Shown in pieces: positions 1 through 7,346 of a stretch of DNA of 7,346 nucleotides. The first letter of the stretch is position 1. Each line of letters begins with the position of its first letter. The stretch is from a virus. Taxonomy: Duplodnaviria > Heunggongvirae > Uroviricota > Caudoviricetes. The notes beneath the pieces were generated by a model. It made no database searches. It was not told the DNA's origin and saw nothing but the letters and a program-made list of their open reading frames with translations. The stretch is taken from positions 1-7,346 of the IMG/VR virus record IMGVR_UViG_3300029840_000137; one strand, 5' to 3'. The position numbers and the translations under genes are program-made.

Positions 1-338
1 GTTGAAGCCACTTTGCGTGATGTGGTACCAAACAATGTAGCCAGCTCATCAGCCGTTTGTGGTCCTCGTTGTTCAATCGTCGCGGTTAAATCGCACTCTG
101 AGATTTTCGCTACTGTTGCTGTGGTGATTTCTTCCGGCAGTTCTGCCTGCGCTGGCTGTTCCTGCTGAACGTTGTTATCAGCCACACGCCAGGTGTACGC
201 GCTTTTATCAACAAAACCAGCCTTTTTCAGTTCCCATAGTTCGTTCAGCACTTCTTCACGACTGATATCAAGTCGCGCAGCAAGTTCTATGGATGTGGCT
301 TTTCCCATTGCTTTCAGTGCGTCAAAAACAGTCTCCAT
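1..338 (-). CDS. Hypothetical prophage protein, partial (start in window, continues beyond the left edge); N-terminus [46 protein letters not shown], possibly winged-helix
   Basis: Minus-strand frame open for 112 codons from ATG (plus 336-338) to position 1 with no stop. GGGAGA lies 9 nt upstream. Start is 22 bp downstream of the dnaC-like stop. Absent from the supplied ORF track because it has no in-window stop. Confidence 0.5.
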
Positions 339-360
339 TAAATTTTTCTCCCGGTAAAAA

Positions 361-1107
361 TTACTTCGCAATTCCTGGCTGGACGACATTCGGACGCCAG
401 CTCTCCCAGTTAAAATTCACCCATAGCCCGCCGTTCATGGTCATGCGATCCATAATCCGCTCGCCGAGCAATGTTTTCATGGCCTCATAGTTCAGGTTTG
501 TCAGCATCCCCACGCTGCGCATCGACGCTGTCCGGCGATCAACAATCTGGTGCAGTACCACCTGCTCGTTTTTCGTCTCGCGCTGAATGCCAATTTCATC
601 AAGAACCAGCAGATCCACTTCGCACAGTTCCCGCAAAAATTTTTCGCCTGACTGCCCATCGTCATAGCTGGCGTGGAGGGCACTCATAACATCAGCCACG
701 GTAACCACAATCACTGTCTGACCGTCTTTCAGCAGGCGATTCCCGATAGCTGCTGCTAAGTGGTTCTTCCCGGTACCAGGTTTTCCGCTAAACGCGAAAT
801 TTGTGCATCCGGTCATCAGTTCATCAGCTATAGATTTCGCCTGGCTCAACGCGTATCGCTGACCGTCGTTCTGCACCTGGTAATTCGCAAACGAGCATTT
901 ACGGTGCAACGGCTGGATGCCTGAGCGATTCAGAATTTTTTCCACCCGCAACTGGCGATTCAGGCGGTTGATCTCCTCGCTACGTTTCTGGCCTTCAGCA
1001 AGTTGCCACTCGTGCCACTCCGCTACCGTTCTGAATGGGGCGGTTACATGTGGCGGAGCCAGTCTTCGGATACGTTCAAGAACGCCGCCTGCCGCAATGT
1101 TTTTCAT
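361..1107 (-). CDS. DnaC-family replicative helicase loader (AAA+ ATPase), prophage copy of the YdaV type
   Basis: 248 aa with Walker [18 protein letters not shown] and Walker [10 protein letters not shown]. Overall resemblance to E. coli DnaC from recollection. GGGGGTGA 6 nt upstream of ATG. Stop of the upstream initiator gene lies 6 bp away. Confidence 0.9.
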
Positions 1108-1113
1108 GACACG

Positions 1114-2076
1114 TCACCCCCTGAATCCCGGCGGTATTTCAGTGTCCGGTTCAGAAATGTGATTCACGCAACGCTGCGCAGGCGAACGCCCCAGGCGGAT
1201 AACCAGTTCATCCCATTTTTCCCGGAGTTTTGCCGGACTCATGATGTTTTTTACCCAGAACGAATCCCGCTGGAGACGCCCAAACATTTCACAAATTTGT
1301 CTGTGAGTTCTGCCATCCAGCATCCGCATTGTGCGAACGTCATTGGCCCATGCTGTCCAGTTGGGTTCTTTCGGTCTAGTGATCTCGCCATCATAGCTGG
1401 CCGCCTGCTCGTAAAGACTCACGATTCGTCCCCAGATCCACTGTGCGCACACCAAATCTTCCTGACTTCCCCACTGGCGTTTTTTCGCACTGAACACAAC
1501 CGCGTCAGGGTGTCGGGTTAAAAAATCCTGTTCAGCCGTCTGCGGGTCCGGTTGCGAAGCGTCCGGACAAGAAGATCTTTTATCTGACGGATCAGGTTTT
1601 AATACTGACGGATCGGGGTCAATCATCGNNNNNNNNNNNNNNNNNTTTTTATCAACAGTTGATCCATCAAAATTTGACGGGTCAACCGTTGAGGGGTCAA
1701 TATTTGACGGGTCAACTGTTAACGGGTCATTTTTTGCCGGGCTAATTTTTCTTTTCGGTTTATATGACTCACGCGCCGCCGCCGCAGCTGCTTCGAGTTT
1801 TTCCACATTAAGCCGATAGATATTGCTTACATTACGCCCACCGACCTTACGCTCTTCCTTCGTCAGCCAGCCCTCTTTCGCCAGTTCTGCAATAGCCGAT
1901 TTCACTGTGGATTCACTTCTTGCACCGATCTGACGCCGGATAGTTTCAATGGCAGGCCATGACACGCCCTCGTCATTGCTGTAGTCTGCAAGACGGGCCA
2001 TAACCGCCACCCTGGATAAGATCATGCCGGTGAAGGCGCACCCTTCCCAGACAAGACCATGAAGCTTGCTGCTCAT
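1114..2076 (-). CDS. Phage replication initiator (lambda O-like / YdaU-like) with internal origin iterons; interrupted by a 17-nt N run
   Basis: Long minus-strand ORF directly upstream of the dnaC-like gene. N-terminal domain looks like a winged-helix DNA-binding domain. Central DPS-rich repeats (DPSTVDPSN, DPSNIDPS) are encoded by the iteron DNA. ATG at plus 2074-2076 follows GGGGG plus 4 nt; the track's longer frame begins at a GTG at 2091 with no Shine-Dalgarno. Confidence 0.8.
   Translation of the reverse strand: MSSKLHGLVWEGCAFTGMILSRVAVMARLADYSNDEGVSWPAIETIRRQIGARSESTVKSAIAELAKEGWLTKEERKVGGRNVSNIYRLNVEKLEAAAAAARESYKPKRKISPAKNDPLTVDPSNIDPSTVDPSNFDGSTVDKXXXXXXXMIDPDPSVLKPDPSDKRSSCPDASQPDPQTAEQDFLTRHPDAVVFSAKKRQWGSQEDLVCAQWIWGRIVSLYEQAASYDGEITRPKEPNWTAWANDVRTMRMLDGRTHRQICEMFGRLQRDSFWVKNIMSPAKLREKWDELVIRLGRSPAQRCVNHISEPDTEIPPGFRG
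1585..1735. repeat. Iteron array, putative prophage origin of replication, inside the initiator gene
   Basis: GGGTCA cores at 1679, 1694, 1709 and 1724 give an exact 15-bp period (gacGGGTCAaccgtt, gagGGGTCAatattt, gacGGGTCAactgtt, aacGGGTCAtttttt). Related ctGACGGATC units at 1585-1618 and the palindrome TCAACAGTTGA at 1652-1662. Four GATC sites within 1576-1664. T/A-rich tract 1730-1770 immediately adjacent. Confidence 0.7.
1629..1645. other. Run of 17 ambiguous bases (N): assembly gap or masked sequence
   Basis: Literal n characters at 1629-1645, inside the iteron region and the initiator ORF (seven X codons in the track translation). Confidence 0.95.
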
Positions 2077-2098
2077 AAAACCCCCGAACACCGTGCTT

Positions 2099-2524
2099 TT
2101 AGTGCATCACCACAGCATTCCCTGCCGGGCCGCCGCGATTCATCTGGTCATACAAAACAACCGCTGACGCAACAAAATCATCGACATCCTTCACCAGCCG
2201 ATCCCTCCGTTCGACGATATCACGGTAATATTCAGAACTGTGGCTACGCATACGGGCCACCAGCAAAGGCGGCATCGCCTTTTCGATCGCCGGTAACAGA
2301 GCCTGCATTTTTTCAACAGCATCAGGGGTGTCTTTATCCAGCCAACGGAAAATTTTCTGGGTATTACGGGCCAGGGCTTCCGGATGGCTGTCGTCATACA
2401 GTTCCGGGAACGTCATTCCCAGCTCGAAATACGCTTTGGTAATTTTCGCAGCCGGCACTTTTTCGCCGTCCGGATGCGCCCAGACATTCATCGCCATGCG
2501 GATGTGTTCATGCTTGATTTTCAT
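2099..2524 (-). CDS. ydaT: YdaT-family protein (described as a CII-like functional analogue in Rac-type prophages)
   Basis: 141 aa beginning MKIKHEHI, which I recall as the YdaT N-terminus. Sits immediately downstream of the cro-like gene and overlaps it by 17 nt. GGAG 8 nt upstream of ATG. Confidence 0.7.
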   Translation of the reverse strand: MKIKHEHIRMAMNVWAHPDGEKVPAAKITKAYFELGMTFPELYDDSHPEALARNTQKIFRWLDKDTPDAVEKMQALLPAIEKAMPPLLVARMRSHSSEYYRDIVERRDRLVKDVDDFVASAVVLYDQMNRGGPAGNAVVMH

Positions 2525-2789
2525 GAATCAAGCTCCTAGAAAGTGGTTGTGTTAACGTTTTGGTATCTTCCAGCTCGGGCCAAATATTCATCCAATCAAA
2601 AGGCCTTAGTTGCTGACGTGTAACTTCACCATTACTGGCTCGCTCAATAAGGACACATAACGATGCCCCTAACACTTGACCTTTACTCAATGCCTTTCTT
2701 AGATAACCGATGCTGGTACCACACTCGCATGCAAACATACGCTGTTCATCTGACGAAAGAGAATTGAGAAATATTCTTAATTCTTCCAT
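2508..2789 (-). CDS. ydaS: Cro-like helix-turn-helix regulator (YdaS family)
   Basis: 93 aa with an HTH-like segment (GTSIGYLRKALSKGQ). Divergent from the repressor gene. Strong AAGGAG 5 nt upstream of ATG. A sigma70-like promoter lies on the minus strand upstream. Confidence 0.75.
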   Translation of the reverse strand: MEELRIFLNSLSSDEQRMFACECGTSIGYLRKALSKGQVLGASLCVLIERASNGEVTRQQLRPFDWMNIWPELEDTKTLTQPLSRSLIHENQA

Positions 2790-2889
2790 AGCTACTCCTT
2801 AGTAAACACAGCAAAGAATACCCACAGGTAAACAAAAGTCAATACCCACAGGTTGTTTACCTTGCGGTAATCGCATCTATTATTTACCT
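2790..2889. promoter_or_regulatory. Divergent switch region: PR-like promoter for the cro-like gene (minus), PRM-like leaderless promoter for the repressor (plus), direct-repeat operator candidates
   Basis: Minus strand: -35 TTGACT (plus 2837-2842), 16-nt spacer, -10 TATTCT (plus 2815-2820). The 12-bp direct repeat AATACCCACAGG (plus 2817-2828 and 2841-2852) overlaps the -10 and the -35. Inverted repeat GGTAAACAA/TTGTTTACC at 2827-2835 and 2853-2861. Plus strand: TATTAT at 2878-2883 sits 6 nt before the repressor ATG, which has no Shine-Dalgarno. Confidence 0.55.
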
Positions 2890-3309
2890 ATGGACAAATA
2901 TGAATTTAGACGACAGCAACTCATCAAAATTCGTGATGAGAAATGCGATGGTAAAGCGGTTAACGTGGCCAGAAAGATCGGGCGCGAGCCTTCTTATGTA
3001 TCAAGAATGTTGTACCCAGAGGGGAAAAAGGGAAAAAAACGGATCGCTGATGATATGGTGGAGATTATCGAAGAGTCCTTTGGGTTACCCCGGGGATGGA
3101 TGGATGGTATCGTTTCATCATCAACGAACACAGCCTCCAGTTATGAAACAAGGGTTCTAACGCCACGACAACGTATTTTTTTAGATCTCTTAGACGAACT
3201 GCCAGAAAGTGAAGCGGATAAATTATTAAAAACTCTTGAAGAGAAAAAACAGTATTACAATATGATCTACGAAGAAATCCGTAAAAAGAAAGCACAAAAC
3301 GCATCATAG
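2890..3309 (+). CDS. CI-like prophage repressor (HTH DNA-binding protein), probably translated from a leaderless mRNA
   Basis: 139 aa. HTH-like segment (VNVARKIGREPSYVSRMLYPEG). Divergent to the cro-like gene. No Shine-Dalgarno; candidate -10 directly upstream. Confidence 0.75.
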   Translation: MDKYEFRRQQLIKIRDEKCDGKAVNVARKIGREPSYVSRMLYPEGKKGKKRIADDMVEIIEESFGLPRGWMDGIVSSSTNTASSYETRVLTPRQRIFLDLLDELPESEADKLLKTLEEKKQYYNMIYEEIRKKKAQNAS

Positions 3310-3349
3310 CTCACCAAACAACTAGTCACCAGTTAAGACACCGCAAAAA

Positions 3350-3390
3350 TTTACCCATGGGTATTTACTTTTTAAATACCTATGGGTATC
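3350..3390 (+). promoter_or_regulatory. PL-like early promoter with two palindromic operator sites
   Basis: -35 TTTACC (3350-3355), 16-nt spacer, -10 TTAAAT (3372-3377). Perfect palindrome TACCCATGGGTA (3352-3363) overlaps the -35. Near-palindrome ATACCTATGGGTAT (3376-3389) overlaps the -10 and start. Half-site ATACCCA is shared with the direct repeats in the divergent region. Confidence 0.5.
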
Positions 3391-3493
3391 CTTCTTTTCA
3401 TACCAACCCACCCCGCCCCACAGAATGCAGGGCAATACTTCGAGTTACCAGGCAGTGGTCAGGGGTTAAGTAGCCAGCCCGAGGCGTAAGAAC

Positions 3494-3727
3494 ATGACGG
3501 CAGGGTTCAACTTTAATAACTATGCAGCAGGTTTTTGTTCCGCTACCCCGGCGTTAAGGGGAAATGAGGTCAACATGGATATGCTCAATCTTGGCAACAA
3601 CGAATCTCTGGTATGTGGCGTGTTCCCCAACCAGGACGGCACGTTTACCGCGATGACGTATACCAGAAGCAAAACGTTTAAAACTGAAGCTGGCGCGCGT
3701 CGCTGGTTAACCAGAAACACTGACTGA
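3494..3727 (+). CDS. Small hypothetical early protein (77 aa; alternative start at 3575 gives 50 aa)
   Basis: First ORF downstream of the PL-like promoter. GAGG 9 nt upstream of ATG 3494; GAGG 5 nt upstream of the internal ATG 3575. Sits where the small ydaF/ydaG-type ORFs lie in Rac (from memory). Confidence 0.55.
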   Translation: MTAGFNFNNYAAGFCSATPALRGNEVNMDMLNLGNNESLVCGVFPNQDGTFTAMTYTRSKTFKTEAGARRWLTRNTD

Positions 3728-3738
3728 TGAGGTTGACG

Positions 3739-4140
3739 ATGGAATTTAAAGATTTACCAGTACCATTCCAGGAAATGGCATCGAATGTGGTTCGCTCTCA
3801 ACTGGCGACTCTTGACCTGAGTACCGTAGAAAAAGAAACCATCGATACTATATCCGGTAACGTGCGTCGTGCCTTTATAGGTCTGTATGAAGAGAAGCGC
3901 CTATTCGGCGGACAGAATTCGCCTGAAAACAAGAATCAAGCAAATGATGAGAAGCTGAAACACATTATCGCCTTACTTTTGGAAGACGCAAAACGTCTAC
4001 AGCAACTGGAACCAAATGCAGGCACAGAGGCCCGCATTTGGATTGCCATGAAATCACTCAAATGTGAAAGCAGTGATTATTTCAAAACAACAATTAAAAC
4101 TACTCAACTTTCGGGAGAGCTACTGAAGAAATTGCCATAA
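3739..4140 (+). CDS. Hypothetical early protein (133 aa from ATG 3739; track frame opens at 3727)
   Basis: GAGG 6 nt upstream of ATG 3739. The ATG at 3727 overlaps the upstream stop (TGATGA) but has no Shine-Dalgarno. No domain recognised by eye. Confidence 0.55.
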   Translation: MEFKDLPVPFQEMASNVVRSQLATLDLSTVEKETIDTISGNVRRAFIGLYEEKRLFGGQNSPENKNQANDEKLKHIIALLLEDAKRLQQLEPNAGTEARIWIAMKSLKCESSDYFKTTIKTTQLSGELLKKLP

Positions 4141-4378
4141 GAGCATGGTCTTTCTCTTGTTCTGCAAGATGAGCATTAATACCTGGTATGGTTTTTTCAA
4201 ATTTATCTATCTGTTGAATAACAACTTCGCGGTATACGTTTGTTTTTGTACCACCAAGCGCAGCCGTTAATGCAGAAAGCATATTTAGTATCATATCAGT
4301 GCGATATGAAAGAATCCTGATAGCTTCATCTTGTTTTTCAATAATAGATTGCAGGGCCTCAATTTGCTTTTTATCCAT
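4100..4378 (-). CDS. Hypothetical small protein (92 aa from ATG 4378; track frame extends to 4417), oriented against the early-left operon
   Basis: Strong AGGAGGG 4 nt upstream of the ATG at plus 4376-4378; the 4417 start has no Shine-Dalgarno. AT-rich. The 3' end overlaps the convergent plus-strand ORF by 41 bp. Contains a short hydrophobic stretch (MILNMLSALTAALGG). Confidence 0.5.
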   Translation of the reverse strand: MDKKQIEALQSIIEKQDEAIRILSYRTDMILNMLSALTAALGGTKTNVYREVVIQQIDKFEKTIPGINAHLAEQEKDHALMAISSVALPKVE

Positions 4379-4612
4379 TTCACCCTCCTGAGGGTTGGTA
4401 ATTAAGGAGTTCTCCACGGGTCAGGTGGAGTGCGTGCGCCGGACACGGGTGAACATCCGGCACTGACAGTTTACTGAAAGGATATGTCCCTGAAAAGTCA
4501 GGGCATAACGCGAAAGCGCACGGCGAAATTGGTCTCTCTGTACGGTGTCGTTAAATTTAGTTCGACCGTGCGCTTCCGGTTGTGAATAACAACATTGCTG
4601 TGTGTAGCCCTT

Positions 4613-4653
4613 GGCGGACATCGGTTTGCCGATTGCTGATGTCCGCCCTTTTT
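4613..4653 (+). terminator. Rho-independent terminator, plus strand
   Basis: Perfect 10-bp stem GGCGGACATC (4613-4622) / GATGTCCGCC (4638-4647) with a 15-nt loop, followed by CTTTTT (4648-4653). Confidence 0.7.
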
Positions 4654-4829
4654 AAAGTGAATTTTGTGATGCGGTGAATGCGGCTATGCGCACGCGGAAC
4701 AGTTAAACCGACAGGATGTCACGGAAAGTCATCGTCCCCTGACCCGGCGTTAGTTGTTAACTGGTTAACGTCACCTGGAGGTACCAGGCACCGCATCAAC
4801 AAAGTTCATTTGTGAAAATGGAGATAATT

Positions 4830-5051
4830 ATGATTGCTCATCACTTCGGAACTGATGAAATACCACGTCAGTGCGTGACGCCTGGCGATTATGTTCTTCA
4901 TGAAGGTCGGACATATATCGCTTCAGCAAACAATATTGAAAAGAGAAAACTCTATATTCGTAACTTCACAACAAAAACATGCATTACCGACTGCATGATT
5001 AAAGTTTTCATCGGGCGCGATGACTTACCCGTAAAAGCAGCGTCGTTGTGA
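4830..5051 (+). CDS. kilR: KilR-like cell-division inhibitor (73 aa from ATG 4830; track frame opens at GTG 4812)
   Basis: GGAG 6 nt upstream of ATG 4830. The 73-aa length matches Rac KilR and the position between the immunity region and recE is as in Rac. Identity rests on recollection of [10 protein letters not shown]... and on context. Confidence 0.6.
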
Positions 5052-5134
5052 CGAGTAATAAAATACACCTTCCATATCTGTAACAGACAAGCCGAAATAA
5101 AACCGCATTAATTATCAACCACGGAAAAATAAAA

Positions 5135-5521
5135 ATGAAAGAACTTGCGCAAAATGAAATATTTTCCGAAACCAGTCCTGATGCAATAAATGAAGTCAAA
5201 GAAATTGCAGAACGCATCAGTAAAATATGCAAAGAATACAAAATCGACTTTGTATTTTCTTTTTCAGTACTTACAGAAGTTGGAAATAACGAATATAAGG
5301 ACAGTCGTTTTGTTTTATGTGGGTTAAATGGCAAAACACCAAGCCCATATATTCATGCTGCATGTGAAGTCGTCAGAAGCAACATTGGAGCACAACAAAT
5401 CCATACACTGGCGCAGGCTCTTGAGTTTGCAAGAGAAAATTCTGAGTGCGACTGCCCTGAATGCCAGCACGAAAAGGGAAAAACAACTCACAAAACAGCA
5501 AACCAGGCAACCTTCCACTGA
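5135..5521 (+). CDS. Hypothetical protein with C-terminal CxCxxC motif (CDCPEC), possibly YdaE-like zinc-binding
   Basis: 128-aa ORF between kilR-like and recE-like genes, in the slot held by ydaE/racC in Rac. Weak A-rich ribosome-binding region. Confidence 0.65.
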   Translation: MKELAQNEIFSETSPDAINEVKEIAERISKICKEYKIDFVFSFSVLTEVGNNEYKDSRFVLCGLNGKTPSPYIHAACEVVRSNIGAQQIHTLAQALEFARENSECDCPECQHEKGKTTHKTANQATFH

Positions 5522-5628
5522 AATAAAAATCCGGCAGCGCAGGCTACCGGATTTCTCCCTGCGTCACCGTATTCGGAGAAATCAGACAAAGGGCCGCTAA
5601 TTCTAATCCAGCCAGAGGTTTAAATACA

Positions 5629-7346
5629 ATGAGCGCTGATAAACAGACTTTTGCACTACACTGCGAAGCAAAAAACGATAAAGTCAGAAAACGCCTTGGC
5701 ATCAAAGGCGGTTTTTTCTGGACCGAGGCCAGAAAACTTTCTGTCGCAGTTTCCCGCTGCATTGCAGCCATGGACGATGCAGGCTACGACGAGGATGATT
5801 TCAAAAAACCCGTTCGCGTAAATTTCCCCGTCGTGAATGACCTTCCACCGGAAGGCGTGTTTGATACTGAATTCTGCAACCGCTATGAAAAAGGCGGGGA
5901 AGATGGCATCACCATGATGGCTATATCCTTCAATGACAACATCAACGGTGAAGATGCCACAACTGCTGGCGATGACAACGATGACCCGGACGGAACTATT
6001 CCGGATGATGTGGAGAAAAGCGAATCCCCGGACAGCGACGATGACTGTTCTGAGTGTGAAACTCCCGTCGCCACTCTGAGCCTTACTCATCGCTTCCTTC
6101 ACCTCTTCTTCTTCAGCAAGGATGAAGATGGAAAATACCGGCATCACGCCACACCAGAACAACGCAATAACGTGATCCGTATGGAGATGGACACAGAGGA
6201 CAGTTACCTTCAGAGCCTGCTTACTGCTGTGCGCGCCGCACATCATGAACTGGATAAACTGACGAACTATCACCTTAGTCGCCTGGCTGAATCTGTAGGG
6301 AAAGCATTCCCCCACTCTGCAAATCATCGCATCAGCCCGGCTGAATTCGACAAGTTCATTTCCACCTGGATGAAAACTGACTACCTTGATCAGGGCCTGC
6401 TGACAAAAGAATGGCAGAACGGAAATTATGTTTCAGGCATTACCCGTACGCCTTCCGGTGCTAACGCTGGCGGCGGAAATCTTACCGATCGTGGTGAAGG
6501 ATTCAAACATGATAAGACATCACTCGCACGAGATGTAGCCACCGGCGTTCTGGCCCGTTCAATGGATGTGGATATTTATAACCTGCACCCAGCACACGCA
6601 AAACGCGTTGAAGAAATCGTGTCAGAGAATAAGCCGCCCTTTTCTGTTTTTCGCGACAAATTTATCGCCATGCCCGGTGGGCTGGATTATTCCCGCGCCA
6701 TTGTGGTGGCTTCCGTGAAAGAAGCACCAATCGGCATTGAGGCCATCCCGGCACGCGTGACTGAATATCTCAACAAAGTGTTGACCGAAACCGATCACGC
6801 TAACCCGGATCCGGAAATCGTGGAAATTGCCTGCGGTCGCTCATCAGCACCGATGCCGCAGCGCGGAACAGCAGAAGGAAAACATGGCGATGAAGAAAAG
6901 CAACAAGCATCGGACACAATGGCTAATGAACAGGCAGCGCCTGAATCAGTGGAAGAAATTCCAGTTAAACATAATGAGGACACGCAATCACTGGAAAATG
7001 TCTCATCTGTAGAAACGAAATACCAGGAACTGAGGGAGGAACTCAATAAAGCCAGGGAAAACATCCCCCCAAAAAATCCAGTCGATGCCGACAAATTACT
7101 GGCTGCCTCGCGTGGAGAATTCGTTGAAGGCATCAGTAACCCTGCTGATCCGAAGTGGGTGAAGGGGATCCAGACTCGCGACACTGAGGACCAGAATCAG
7201 TCCAAAGTGGAACAAATTGCCCCAGAAGCGGGACAAAACAGCCCGGATACGCAACAAAACGGGTCAGAAGAGCAACAGCCAGGGCCAGTAGCGCAACCGG
7301 AGCTGGAAAAAAACTGCCGCGTCTGTGGTCAGACTGGCGGGGGTAA
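5629..7346 (+). CDS. recE: RecE-like protein (exodeoxyribonuclease VIII family), N-terminal 572 codons; 3' end beyond the window
   Basis: Frame open from ATG 5629 to the window end. AGAGG 10 nt upstream. Translated segments ([101 protein letters not shown]) match my recollection of E. coli RecE. Absent from the ORF track because it has no in-window stop. Confidence 0.75.

Follow-up and report, generated by a model that had tools for sequence, protein, structure and literature searches.

A probable lambda-type OR control region with three dyad operators in the immunity module of an Escherichia coli lambdoid prophage

Do the direct repeats that lie between the divergent repressor and cro-like genes of a prophage call for a recognition mode, or a binding protein, of their own? 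The question is raised by IMG/VR virus record IMGVR_UViG_3300029840_000137, of which positions 1 to 7,346 (7,346 nucleotides, nt; hereafter the window) were analyzed and which, judged from its sequence, is part of an Escherichia coli lambdoid prophage. Its repressor gene (2890..3309, plus strand, 139 amino acids, labelled "hypothetical protein" in RefSeq) and its YdaS-like cro analogue (2508..2789, minus strand, 93 amino acids) are divergent and separated by 100 base pairs (bp). A first-pass annotation of this DNA had described a switch region with two direct repeats over the PR-like promoter of the cro-like gene, had contrasted these with palindromes at a PL-like promoter, and had suggested two recognition modes or two different binding proteins. 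The repeat proves to be two copies of the same dyad as is found at the PL-like promoter, the contrast having arisen because of how the sequence was parsed. From the sequence comparisons described here, 2790-2889 is probably the lambda-type right operator (OR) control region of a bistable prophage switch with three dyad operators.

The repeat itself is exact. The 12-mer originally noted, AATACCCACAGG(T), is a unit of 13 nt rather than 12 (AATACCCACAGGT), present on the plus strand at 2817..2829 (copy 1) and at 2841..2853 (copy 2), 24 bp from start to start. Its overlap with the PR-like promoter stands as well, copy 1 covering 4 nt of the -10 hexamer and copy 2 covering 2 nt of the -35 hexamer. 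With up to two mismatches the 12-mer has four matches in the whole window against 0.45 expected, a number reached in one of 200 shuffles; the two extra matches, at 3354-3365 and 3379-3390, are both on the minus strand and downstream of the repressor gene. What had been missed is that each copy holds an inverted repeat, TACC-N4-GGT(A/T), and that a third dyad is situated at 2858-2869. The motif TACCNNNNGGTA, at one mismatch or less, occurs seven times in the window (1.25 expected; none of 200 shuffles reaches seven), and five of these seven matches are the three switch sites and two downstream sites.

Operator O1 (2819..2830; TACC-CACA-GGTA, a perfect dyad) is contained in copy 1 and overlaps the PR -10 hexamer and the spacer, with a centre that precedes the repressor ATG by 65.5 nt and the predicted PR start near 2808 by about 16.5 nt. 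Operator O2 (2843..2854; TACC-CACA-GGTT, with an imperfect right half), most of which is contained in copy 2, abuts the PR -35 hexamer; it is centred 41.5 nt ahead of the ATG and, relative to the same PR start, at about -40.5. Operator O3 (2858..2869; (TT)TACC-TTGC-GGTA(A), again a perfect dyad) overlaps the -35 hexamer and the spacer of the repressor promoter, with its centre 26.5 nt before the ATG and 15 bp, that is, one and a half helical turns, from that of O2. The operator core is probably TACC-N4-GGTA and the full site 16 bp long, of the form T(T/A)TACC-N4-GGTAA(A). In the allele of the window both the centre (CACA) and the 5' flank (AA) of O1 and O2 coincide.

An alignment of the repressor DNA-binding domain, used to scan one genome per species, returned 40 loci, and the comparison loci numbered 41 overall. 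Three sites are present in 31 loci, which include the window and the lambdoid phage mEp043 and which span Enterobacterales, Aeromonas, Neisseria, Burkholderiales, Nitrosomonadales-like bacteria and Xanthomonadales. In these 31 loci the O1-O2 spacing is 25 bp in 27 and 24 bp in four, the O2-O3 spacing is 15 bp in every one, and the distance from the start of O3 to the ATG is 32-35 nt. In the O1 half-sites the four TA/TA positions never vary (2.0 bits), the remaining four being kept in 30 of 31 loci (1.79 bits); the O3 half-sites carry 1.45-2.0 bits. At the central four positions the information is 0.5-1.1 bits in O1, 0.7-1.2 bits in O2 and 0.1-0.3 bits in O3, the centres of O1 and O2 mostly alternating between pyrimidine and purine and that of O3 departing from this alternation. 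As the half-sites are conserved and the centres variable, the direct repeat is not the conserved feature. The proposal of a switch region of a lambda-like immunity module with operators on the PR-like promoter is upheld by positions kept in the 30 further loci, and the comparison of these genomes establishes the sites, how they are spaced and conserved, and that they are inherited together with the repressor domain and cro.

It is very improbable that the direct repeats are read head-to-tail, by the YdaS- or YdaT-like protein or by a second mode of the repressor, in a manner distinct from that of the PL palindromes. Such a reading would draw on the exactness of the 13-nt repeat, which is far above chance, and on the asymmetry of O2 in 31 of 31 loci: the left half reads AATACC in each of them, the right half GGTA in none (it is mostly GGTT, GGGA, GGCC or GGTC), so that the left half of O1 and the left half of O2 form a conserved pair of half-sites in the same orientation. 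The authors who described the switch of prophage CP-933P noted direct as well as inverted repeats in it, which also favours the direct-repeat reading (PMC8630535). Each copy of the repeat holds the same dyad as the PL-like sites, however, and O1 and O2, which agree exactly and in register over 13 nt in the window, do so over just 3-11 nt at the longest in the 30 relatives, in which the half-sites alone are conserved. A cro homologue accompanies the sites in 30 of the 30 three-site relatives (of the 41 comparison loci overall, 33 have one), in keeping with the rule known from lambda, where the repressor and Cro use common sites. As a separate recognition mode the direct repeats were rejected, since the dyad is conserved and the repeat is not.

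The YdaT-like protein, which the first-pass annotation had listed among the candidate binders of 2800-2870, is not needed there either. The window YdaT (40.8 bits against PF06254, cut-off 21) is identical at 139 of 140 positions to the CP-933P protein of PDB entry 8BT1, and the footprinted operator of CP-933P YdaT is TTGATT-N6-AATCAA (PMC9986795). This motif has a single exact match in the window, TTGATTTTCATGAATCAA at 2514..2531, located at the ydaS/ydaT junction, outside the switch. Binding of YdaT to the switch repeats was rejected on the ground of this sole match to its known operator, which likewise speaks against a head-to-tail reading by that protein.

Closely related alleles already break the repeat. 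Among six E. coli switch alleles, 7 of 12 operator-centre columns are variable, against 1 of 24 half-site columns and 9 of 63 other intergenic columns (centres versus the rest, 7/12 against 10/87; Fisher p = 6e-4); when the most divergent allele is omitted, the variable columns number 4, 1 and 0, respectively. The centre of O2 is CTTG, CTCA or CATA in four of the five other alleles, the exact direct repeat being therefore lost there, and these alleles are about 97% identical to the window in the switch stretch. The sites at the PL-like promoter vary among the E. coli alleles in the same way as the OR sites. The centres concerned are 2823-2826, 2847-2850, 2862-2865, 3356-3359 and 3381-3384 (alleles L045-L049); in the A19 allele (L045) both centres at the PL-like promoter are changed in a compensatory way (CACA and TGTG). 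The clustering of substitutions in the centres could possibly reflect affinity tuning, diversifying selection or conversion between operators. The last of these touches on another explanation of the repeat, namely a recent local duplication or gene conversion of no regulatory meaning, to which we give hardly any credence: the 13-nt identity is confined to the allele group of the window and could stem from one operator having been converted by the other, yet both positions carry conserved sites in 31 of 31 loci at fixed distances to the promoters and the ATG, and are thus old and constrained, so that only the identity of the centres could be a recent accident.

A separate observation concerns four Klebsiella loci (L005, L008, L009 and L011; at about 2420-2500), in which an S24 homologue of the repressor is present without a divergent cro. 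These loci keep O1 and O3, 40 bp apart, and are devoid of O2 and of the PR -35 hexamer. Their -10 hexamer is placed 7 nt before the ATG of the conserved MDKYE, RefSeq-like open reading frame calls beginning further upstream.

The promoters in question were named correctly. A promoter scan of 2500-3600 gave exactly two promoter-like sites, the same two as the first-pass annotation. One of them is the minus-strand TTGACT-16-TATTCT promoter of the cro analogue (PR-like; -35 TTGACT at 2837..2842, -10 TATTCT at 2815..2820), with a predicted start at about 2807-2809 on the minus strand. Its counterpart in the 31 loci has TTG in the -35 hexamer without exception, abuts O2 with this hexamer, has a spacer of 16-17 nt, and conforms to TAnnnT in the -10 hexamer in 29 of 31 loci, the TA being the end of O1, as in the window. 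The other site is the plus-strand promoter of the repressor gene, reminiscent in position of the lambda repressor-maintenance promoter (PRM-like; -35 TTTACC at 2856..2861, made up of the left half of O3 plus flank, and -10 TATTAT at 2878..2883, 16 nt after the -35). In the 31 loci its -35 hexamer is TTTACC in 26, TTTACT in four and TATACC in one.

The repressor ATG (2890-2892) begins 6 nt after TATTAT, with TTACCT intervening, and the absence of a Shine-Dalgarno sequence that had been claimed for it is borne out: none of GGAG, GAGG, AGGA and AAGG occurs in the 13-nt stretch that begins 16 nt and ends 4 nt before the ATG. The open reading frame has no in-frame start codon further upstream. When the best -10-like hexamer was picked from three spacer lengths, 16-18 nt after the -35, the distance from its end to the ATG was 5 nt in 3 loci, 6 nt in 18 and 7 nt in 10, which leaves no room for a ribosome-binding site; Shine-Dalgarno-like tetramers are present in just five of the relatives. 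The likeness of the repressor start to the leaderless geometry of lambda cI and PRM holds, its position being conserved in the 30 further loci, and the fact that the -10 position is kept in the 31 loci speaks for a leaderless repressor mRNA with a start predicted at A2890 or within 1-2 nt of it. In contrast to the repressor start, the cro analogue has a leader of about 20 nt with the Shine-Dalgarno sequence AAGGAG (2795..2800, minus strand), 5 nt before its ATG (2789-2787). In betaproteobacterial and Xanthomonad relatives the divergent cro-like ATG follows just about 6 nt after the PR -10 (loci L020, L026, L030, L033, L035, L038 and L040-L042, at about 2410-2440; for example TAAATTgtagtcATG in L033), and both switch genes may be leaderless in these relatives.

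It is unlikely, given this geometry, that the operators are as described and the repressor mRNA is not leaderless, its main starts being located upstream, for example at a YdaT-activated promoter near 2530 resembling the repressor-establishment promoter (PRE) or at others in the switch, with the ATG translated without a Shine-Dalgarno sequence. Three starts, one of them leaderless, were mapped for RacR (PMC9638921), and CP-933P has a YdaT-stimulated PRE promoter directed at its repressor gene (PMC9986795), while the window contains this same YdaT and operator; moreover, the promoter scan by itself is not significant. Weighed against these points, the -10-like hexamer is found 5-7 nt before the ATG in 31 of 31 loci of widely differing genome composition, the geometry equals that of lambda PRM and of PaaR2, whose leaderless translation was proven, and a transcript of PRE type would add to a leaderless PRM transcript rather than supplant it.

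The two downstream sites are left operator (OL) sites of the same motif as O1-O3: OL2, TACCCATGGGTA, at 3352..3363, and OL1, TACCTATGGGTA, at 3377..3388. Between and beyond them a PL-like promoter can be read from the sequence on the plus strand (TTTACT at 3364-3369, a spacer of 17 nt, TATCCT at 3387-3392); it scores 8/12, under the scan threshold. Its -10 hexamer overlaps the right half of OL1, just as the PR -10 overlaps O1. Of the 41 comparison loci, 21 have two such sites, 25-26 bp apart, downstream of the repressor gene and nine others have one; within loci of 5 kb the perfect TACC-N4-GGTA is nearly confined to OR and to this downstream pair. As an observation in its own right, RNA from the OL operators and their flanks (3352-3397) can fold into a hairpin of 16 bp, after which comes UCCUUCUUUU (-24.3 kcal/mol, z = -5.1); the structure is situated about 40 nt past the repressor stop codon and resembles a terminator. 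A further match, TACCTATGGACA at 2885..2896, has two mismatches in its right half, extends over the repressor start codon and has 9 nt in common with OL1; it could be a weak fourth operator, and it is found only in the E. coli alleles, being absent from the other relatives.

The repressor that would bind these sites shares its DNA-binding domain with a known repressor family. Its N-terminal ~85 residues show 65-80% identity to the N-terminal domain of LexA/S24-type CI repressors (221-242 amino acids) from Salmonella, Klebsiella, Pantoea, Edwardsiella and others, mEp043 CI matching with 65% over residues 1-86, and the N-terminal helix-turn-helix domain (residues ~1-75) is common to the S24-type CI repressors. 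An AlphaFold model (predicted local distance difference test, pLDDT, 82.8) has a four-helix N-terminal domain, a disordered linker (77-87) and a C-terminal helical hairpin (92-138), and helices 23-30 and 34-41 of the model are likely to be the helix-turn-helix. The predicted recognition helix comprises residues 34-41, PSYVSRML; the residues invariant in the family, S35, Y36, R39, M40, L41 and Y42, are in or beside it, and the invariance of the presumed recognition helix fits that of the half-site.

The C-terminal part is of a different kind. The last 50 residues resemble DicA (NF007257, E = 2e-5) and the CI of phage Tritos, the score against the full-length DicA model, 24.5 bits, being far below the 101-bit cut-off. 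The same DNA-binding domain (70-80% identity) is joined either to an S24 peptidase (221-242 amino acids) or to a DicA-like hairpin (135-139 amino acids), and in phage Tritos CI the same C-terminal hairpin is carried by a different N-terminal domain; on these sequences the exchange of C-terminal parts appears as modular swapping of the induction module. On the other side of the switch, the cro analogue scores 25.8 bits against the Pfam family YdaS (PF15943; cut-off 30) and is distantly related to PDB chains 8C7K and 8CO2, which are annotated as phage Cro antirepressor proteins (E = 1e-10); its identity to mEp043 Cro is 72%.

From these assignments we infer binding, occupancy order, activation and transcription starts as follows. 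Dimers of the 139-amino-acid repressor would bind the operators through the N-terminal helix-turn-helix domain, and cooperative binding at O1 and the intrinsically weak O2 would block the leftward PR-like promoter, with which the cro-like, ydaT-like and replication genes would be silenced. The O2 dimer, whose centre is at -41.5 relative to the repressor start, would stimulate the weak PRM-like promoter TTTACC-16-TATTAT, whose transcript would begin with the A of the ATG or no more than 1-2 nt away from it and yield a leaderless repressor mRNA. O3, placed over the PRM -35 hexamer, may serve either for negative autoregulation or for shut-off as the site favoured by the Cro analogue, a protein expected on the same operators as the repressor. 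Both proteins would act also at the OL pair over the PL-like promoter.

Several properties of this layout are those of phage lambda: about 100 bp separate the divergent repressor and cro genes, the three dyad operators extend over both predicted promoters, O1 and O2 are 24 bp apart, the ATG follows 6 nt after the PRM -10, the operators recur at a PL-like promoter, and a gene for a CII-type activator comes after cro. Counted from PRM, lambda OR1 and OR2 are centred at about -66 and -42, and, counted from PR, at about -17 and -41; lambda PRM reads TAGATT, then 6 nt, then ATG; the positions of O1 and O2 in the window reproduce those of OR1 and OR2. Lambda differs in having 17-bp sites, the window sites being 12-16 bp TACC-N4-GGTA dyads, and in an O2-O3 spacing of 23 bp with O3 at about -19 from PRM; in the window this spacing is 15 bp, and the part of PRM under O3 is the -35 and spacer rather than the -10. 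The OL sites found in the window number two, and its repressor has a DicA-like hairpin in place of the S24 autocleavage domain. By sequence, neither the YdaS-like Cro analogue nor the CII analogue YdaT is homologous to its lambda counterpart (PMC9986795). Every lambda-type switch feature that was tested is present, except for the self-cleaving repressor domain. The immunity type is one so far uncharacterised; its layout is the known lambda design and involves no new mode of DNA recognition.

The closest functional counterpart is mEp043, a functional lambdoid phage with a homologous repressor DNA-binding domain and Cro. Its sites TACCTGTAGGTA, TACCCATAGGTT and TACCGGCAGGTA are at -66.5, -41.5 and -26.5 from the cI ATG, those of the window being at -65.5, -41.5 and -26.5; its -10 hexamer ends 6 nt before the cI ATG, and an OL pair 25 bp apart is found upstream of N, where the counterpart of the PL-like promoter is TAGACA-17-TATATT. 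In mEp043 the O1-O2 spacing is 25 bp, as against 24 bp in the window, and the centres of O1 and O2 differ, so that there is no direct repeat; it has lambda-type cII and N genes where the window has YdaT and ydfA-like genes. The mEp043 CI has 228 amino acids, and, from this length and from an N-terminal domain near-identical to that of P0114 (231 amino acids, S24 family), it would have an S24-type C-terminal part.

PaaR2 of CP-933P and RacR of Rac are likened to the window repressor through the ydaS-ydaT pairing and the layout, not through repressor homology. In CP-933P a short, non-cleavable repressor is likewise divergent from ydaS-ydaT, the intergenic region measuring 97 bp against 100 bp in the window, and TTGATT-N6-AATCAA occupies the ydaS/ydaT junction in both, with YdaT identical at 139 of 140 positions. 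The leaderless PaaR2 mRNA was shown by 5' RACE, N-terminal protein sequencing and mass spectrometry, and that switch has inverted-repeat operators and an additional PL-type promoter with the same operators (PMC8630535). Unlike CP-933P, the window has no paaA2-parE2 toxin-antitoxin genes after the repressor gene. In Rac, a leaderless racR transcript was detected by primer extension, and three inverted-repeat operators are present in the racR-ydaS intergenic region (PMC9638921); RacR O3 overlaps its ATG, as does the candidate site at 2885-2896 in the window. Operators of the PaaR2 and RacR types were rejected for the switch of the window, in which neither the CP-933P half-site GTTTAGTAA (of four 18-bp palindromes there) nor the RacR operator TAGGC-N3-GCCTA occurs above chance level. 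With Qin the window has in common the DicA-like C-terminus of its repressor; unlike in Rac and Qin, its DNA-binding domain is not an annotated RacR or DicA domain.

Some results weigh against the proposed lambda-type OR region. The two sites found by the promoter scan equal the number expected from shuffled sequence (2.0) and are not above chance alone, hence our reliance on positional conservation for the promoters, and the strict -10 signature (A at position 2, T at position 6) is present in 24 of the 31 loci, not in all. The O2-O3 spacing of 15 bp and the position of O3 at -26.5 over the -35 hexamer are unlike lambda, and occupancy order and the logic of autoregulation are therefore not transferable from it. 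The repressor, with its 139 amino acids and no Pfam domain match, is without a self-cleaving domain of S24/LexA type, whereas relatives with the same DNA-binding domain carry PF00717; induction must therefore differ from that of lambda. A PDB sequence search with the repressor gave noise only, and its Foldseek matches were weak, the top ones being mostly lambda-repressor-like helix-turn-helix proteins of the XRE family. The best of them was the repressor of Salmonella phage SPC32H (5D50, E = 1e-3), which is inactivated by an antirepressor, and these matches to the model are suggestive of an XRE/lambda-repressor-like fold. A literature search for six representative operator 12-mers found no paper quoting any of them as an operator; none was found describing TACC-N4-GGTA operators, the searches returning unrelated papers, nor one describing the operators of mEp043. 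No LexA box, which would hint at an SOS-controlled antirepressor, was found in the window.

The switch is embedded in an immunity module that is common in E. coli. Positions 2400-3500 of the window are 100% identical to many complete genomes, and 822 of 5426 complete E. coli genomes carry the 141-bp switch segment (2770-2910), the carriers of the module including O157:H7, O111, sequence type 131 (ST131) and enteropathogenic E. coli (EPEC) E2348/69 strains. On the minus strand, from right to left, the cro analogue is followed by the YdaT-like gene, the CII analogue (2099..2524), an O/DnaD-like replication gene (1114-2091) and a DnaC/IstB-like gene (361-1107). On the other side, a DUF1391 (ydfA-like) gene comes next after the repressor gene, and in the closest genome this downstream operon continues with ydfB, ydfC, dicB and ydfD; by this ydf/dicB order the PL-like promoter is the positional counterpart of the promoter of the Qin dicB operon. 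The O/DnaD-like gene is interrupted by a run of N at 1629-1645, just past which are iteron-like repeats, TTGACGGGTCAAC and variants (the observation spans 1629-1735); these probably mark a replication origin within the gene, as in lambda. The replication genes left of ydaT (window 1-2091) are unlike those of strain 203740 (L001 4095-5628), the immunity region of which is otherwise identical: a hypothetical protein and DUF977 are encoded there, O/DnaD-like and DnaC-like proteins in the window, with a mosaic junction near the end of ydaT.

In phage 434 the operator centre sets affinity through DNA shape. If the centres of the operators described here do likewise, prophages of one nominal immunity type could be diversifying the set-points of their switches, or their partial cross-immunity, and such diversification would, if this is true, need changes in the operator-centre bases only. 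The wider idea, that the non-contacted centre and the defective O2 are tuning devices and that the C-terminal swap alters induction and not immunity, is put forward with considerable doubt. The assignment of operators, promoters and starts is in itself a ready map for studying how these prophages stay silent, and in related prophages a dicB-type cell-division operon is downstream under such control. No new regulatory principle emerges from it; it adds a widely distributed member to a well-known kind of switch, in which one cassette of repressor domain, Cro and operators is common to bacteria from enterobacteria through Neisseria and Xanthomonas. Follow-up may be merited by the asymmetry that O2 keeps across the loci, by the concentration of allelic differences in the operator centres, and by the pairing of one cassette with either a cleavable or a non-cleavable C-terminus.

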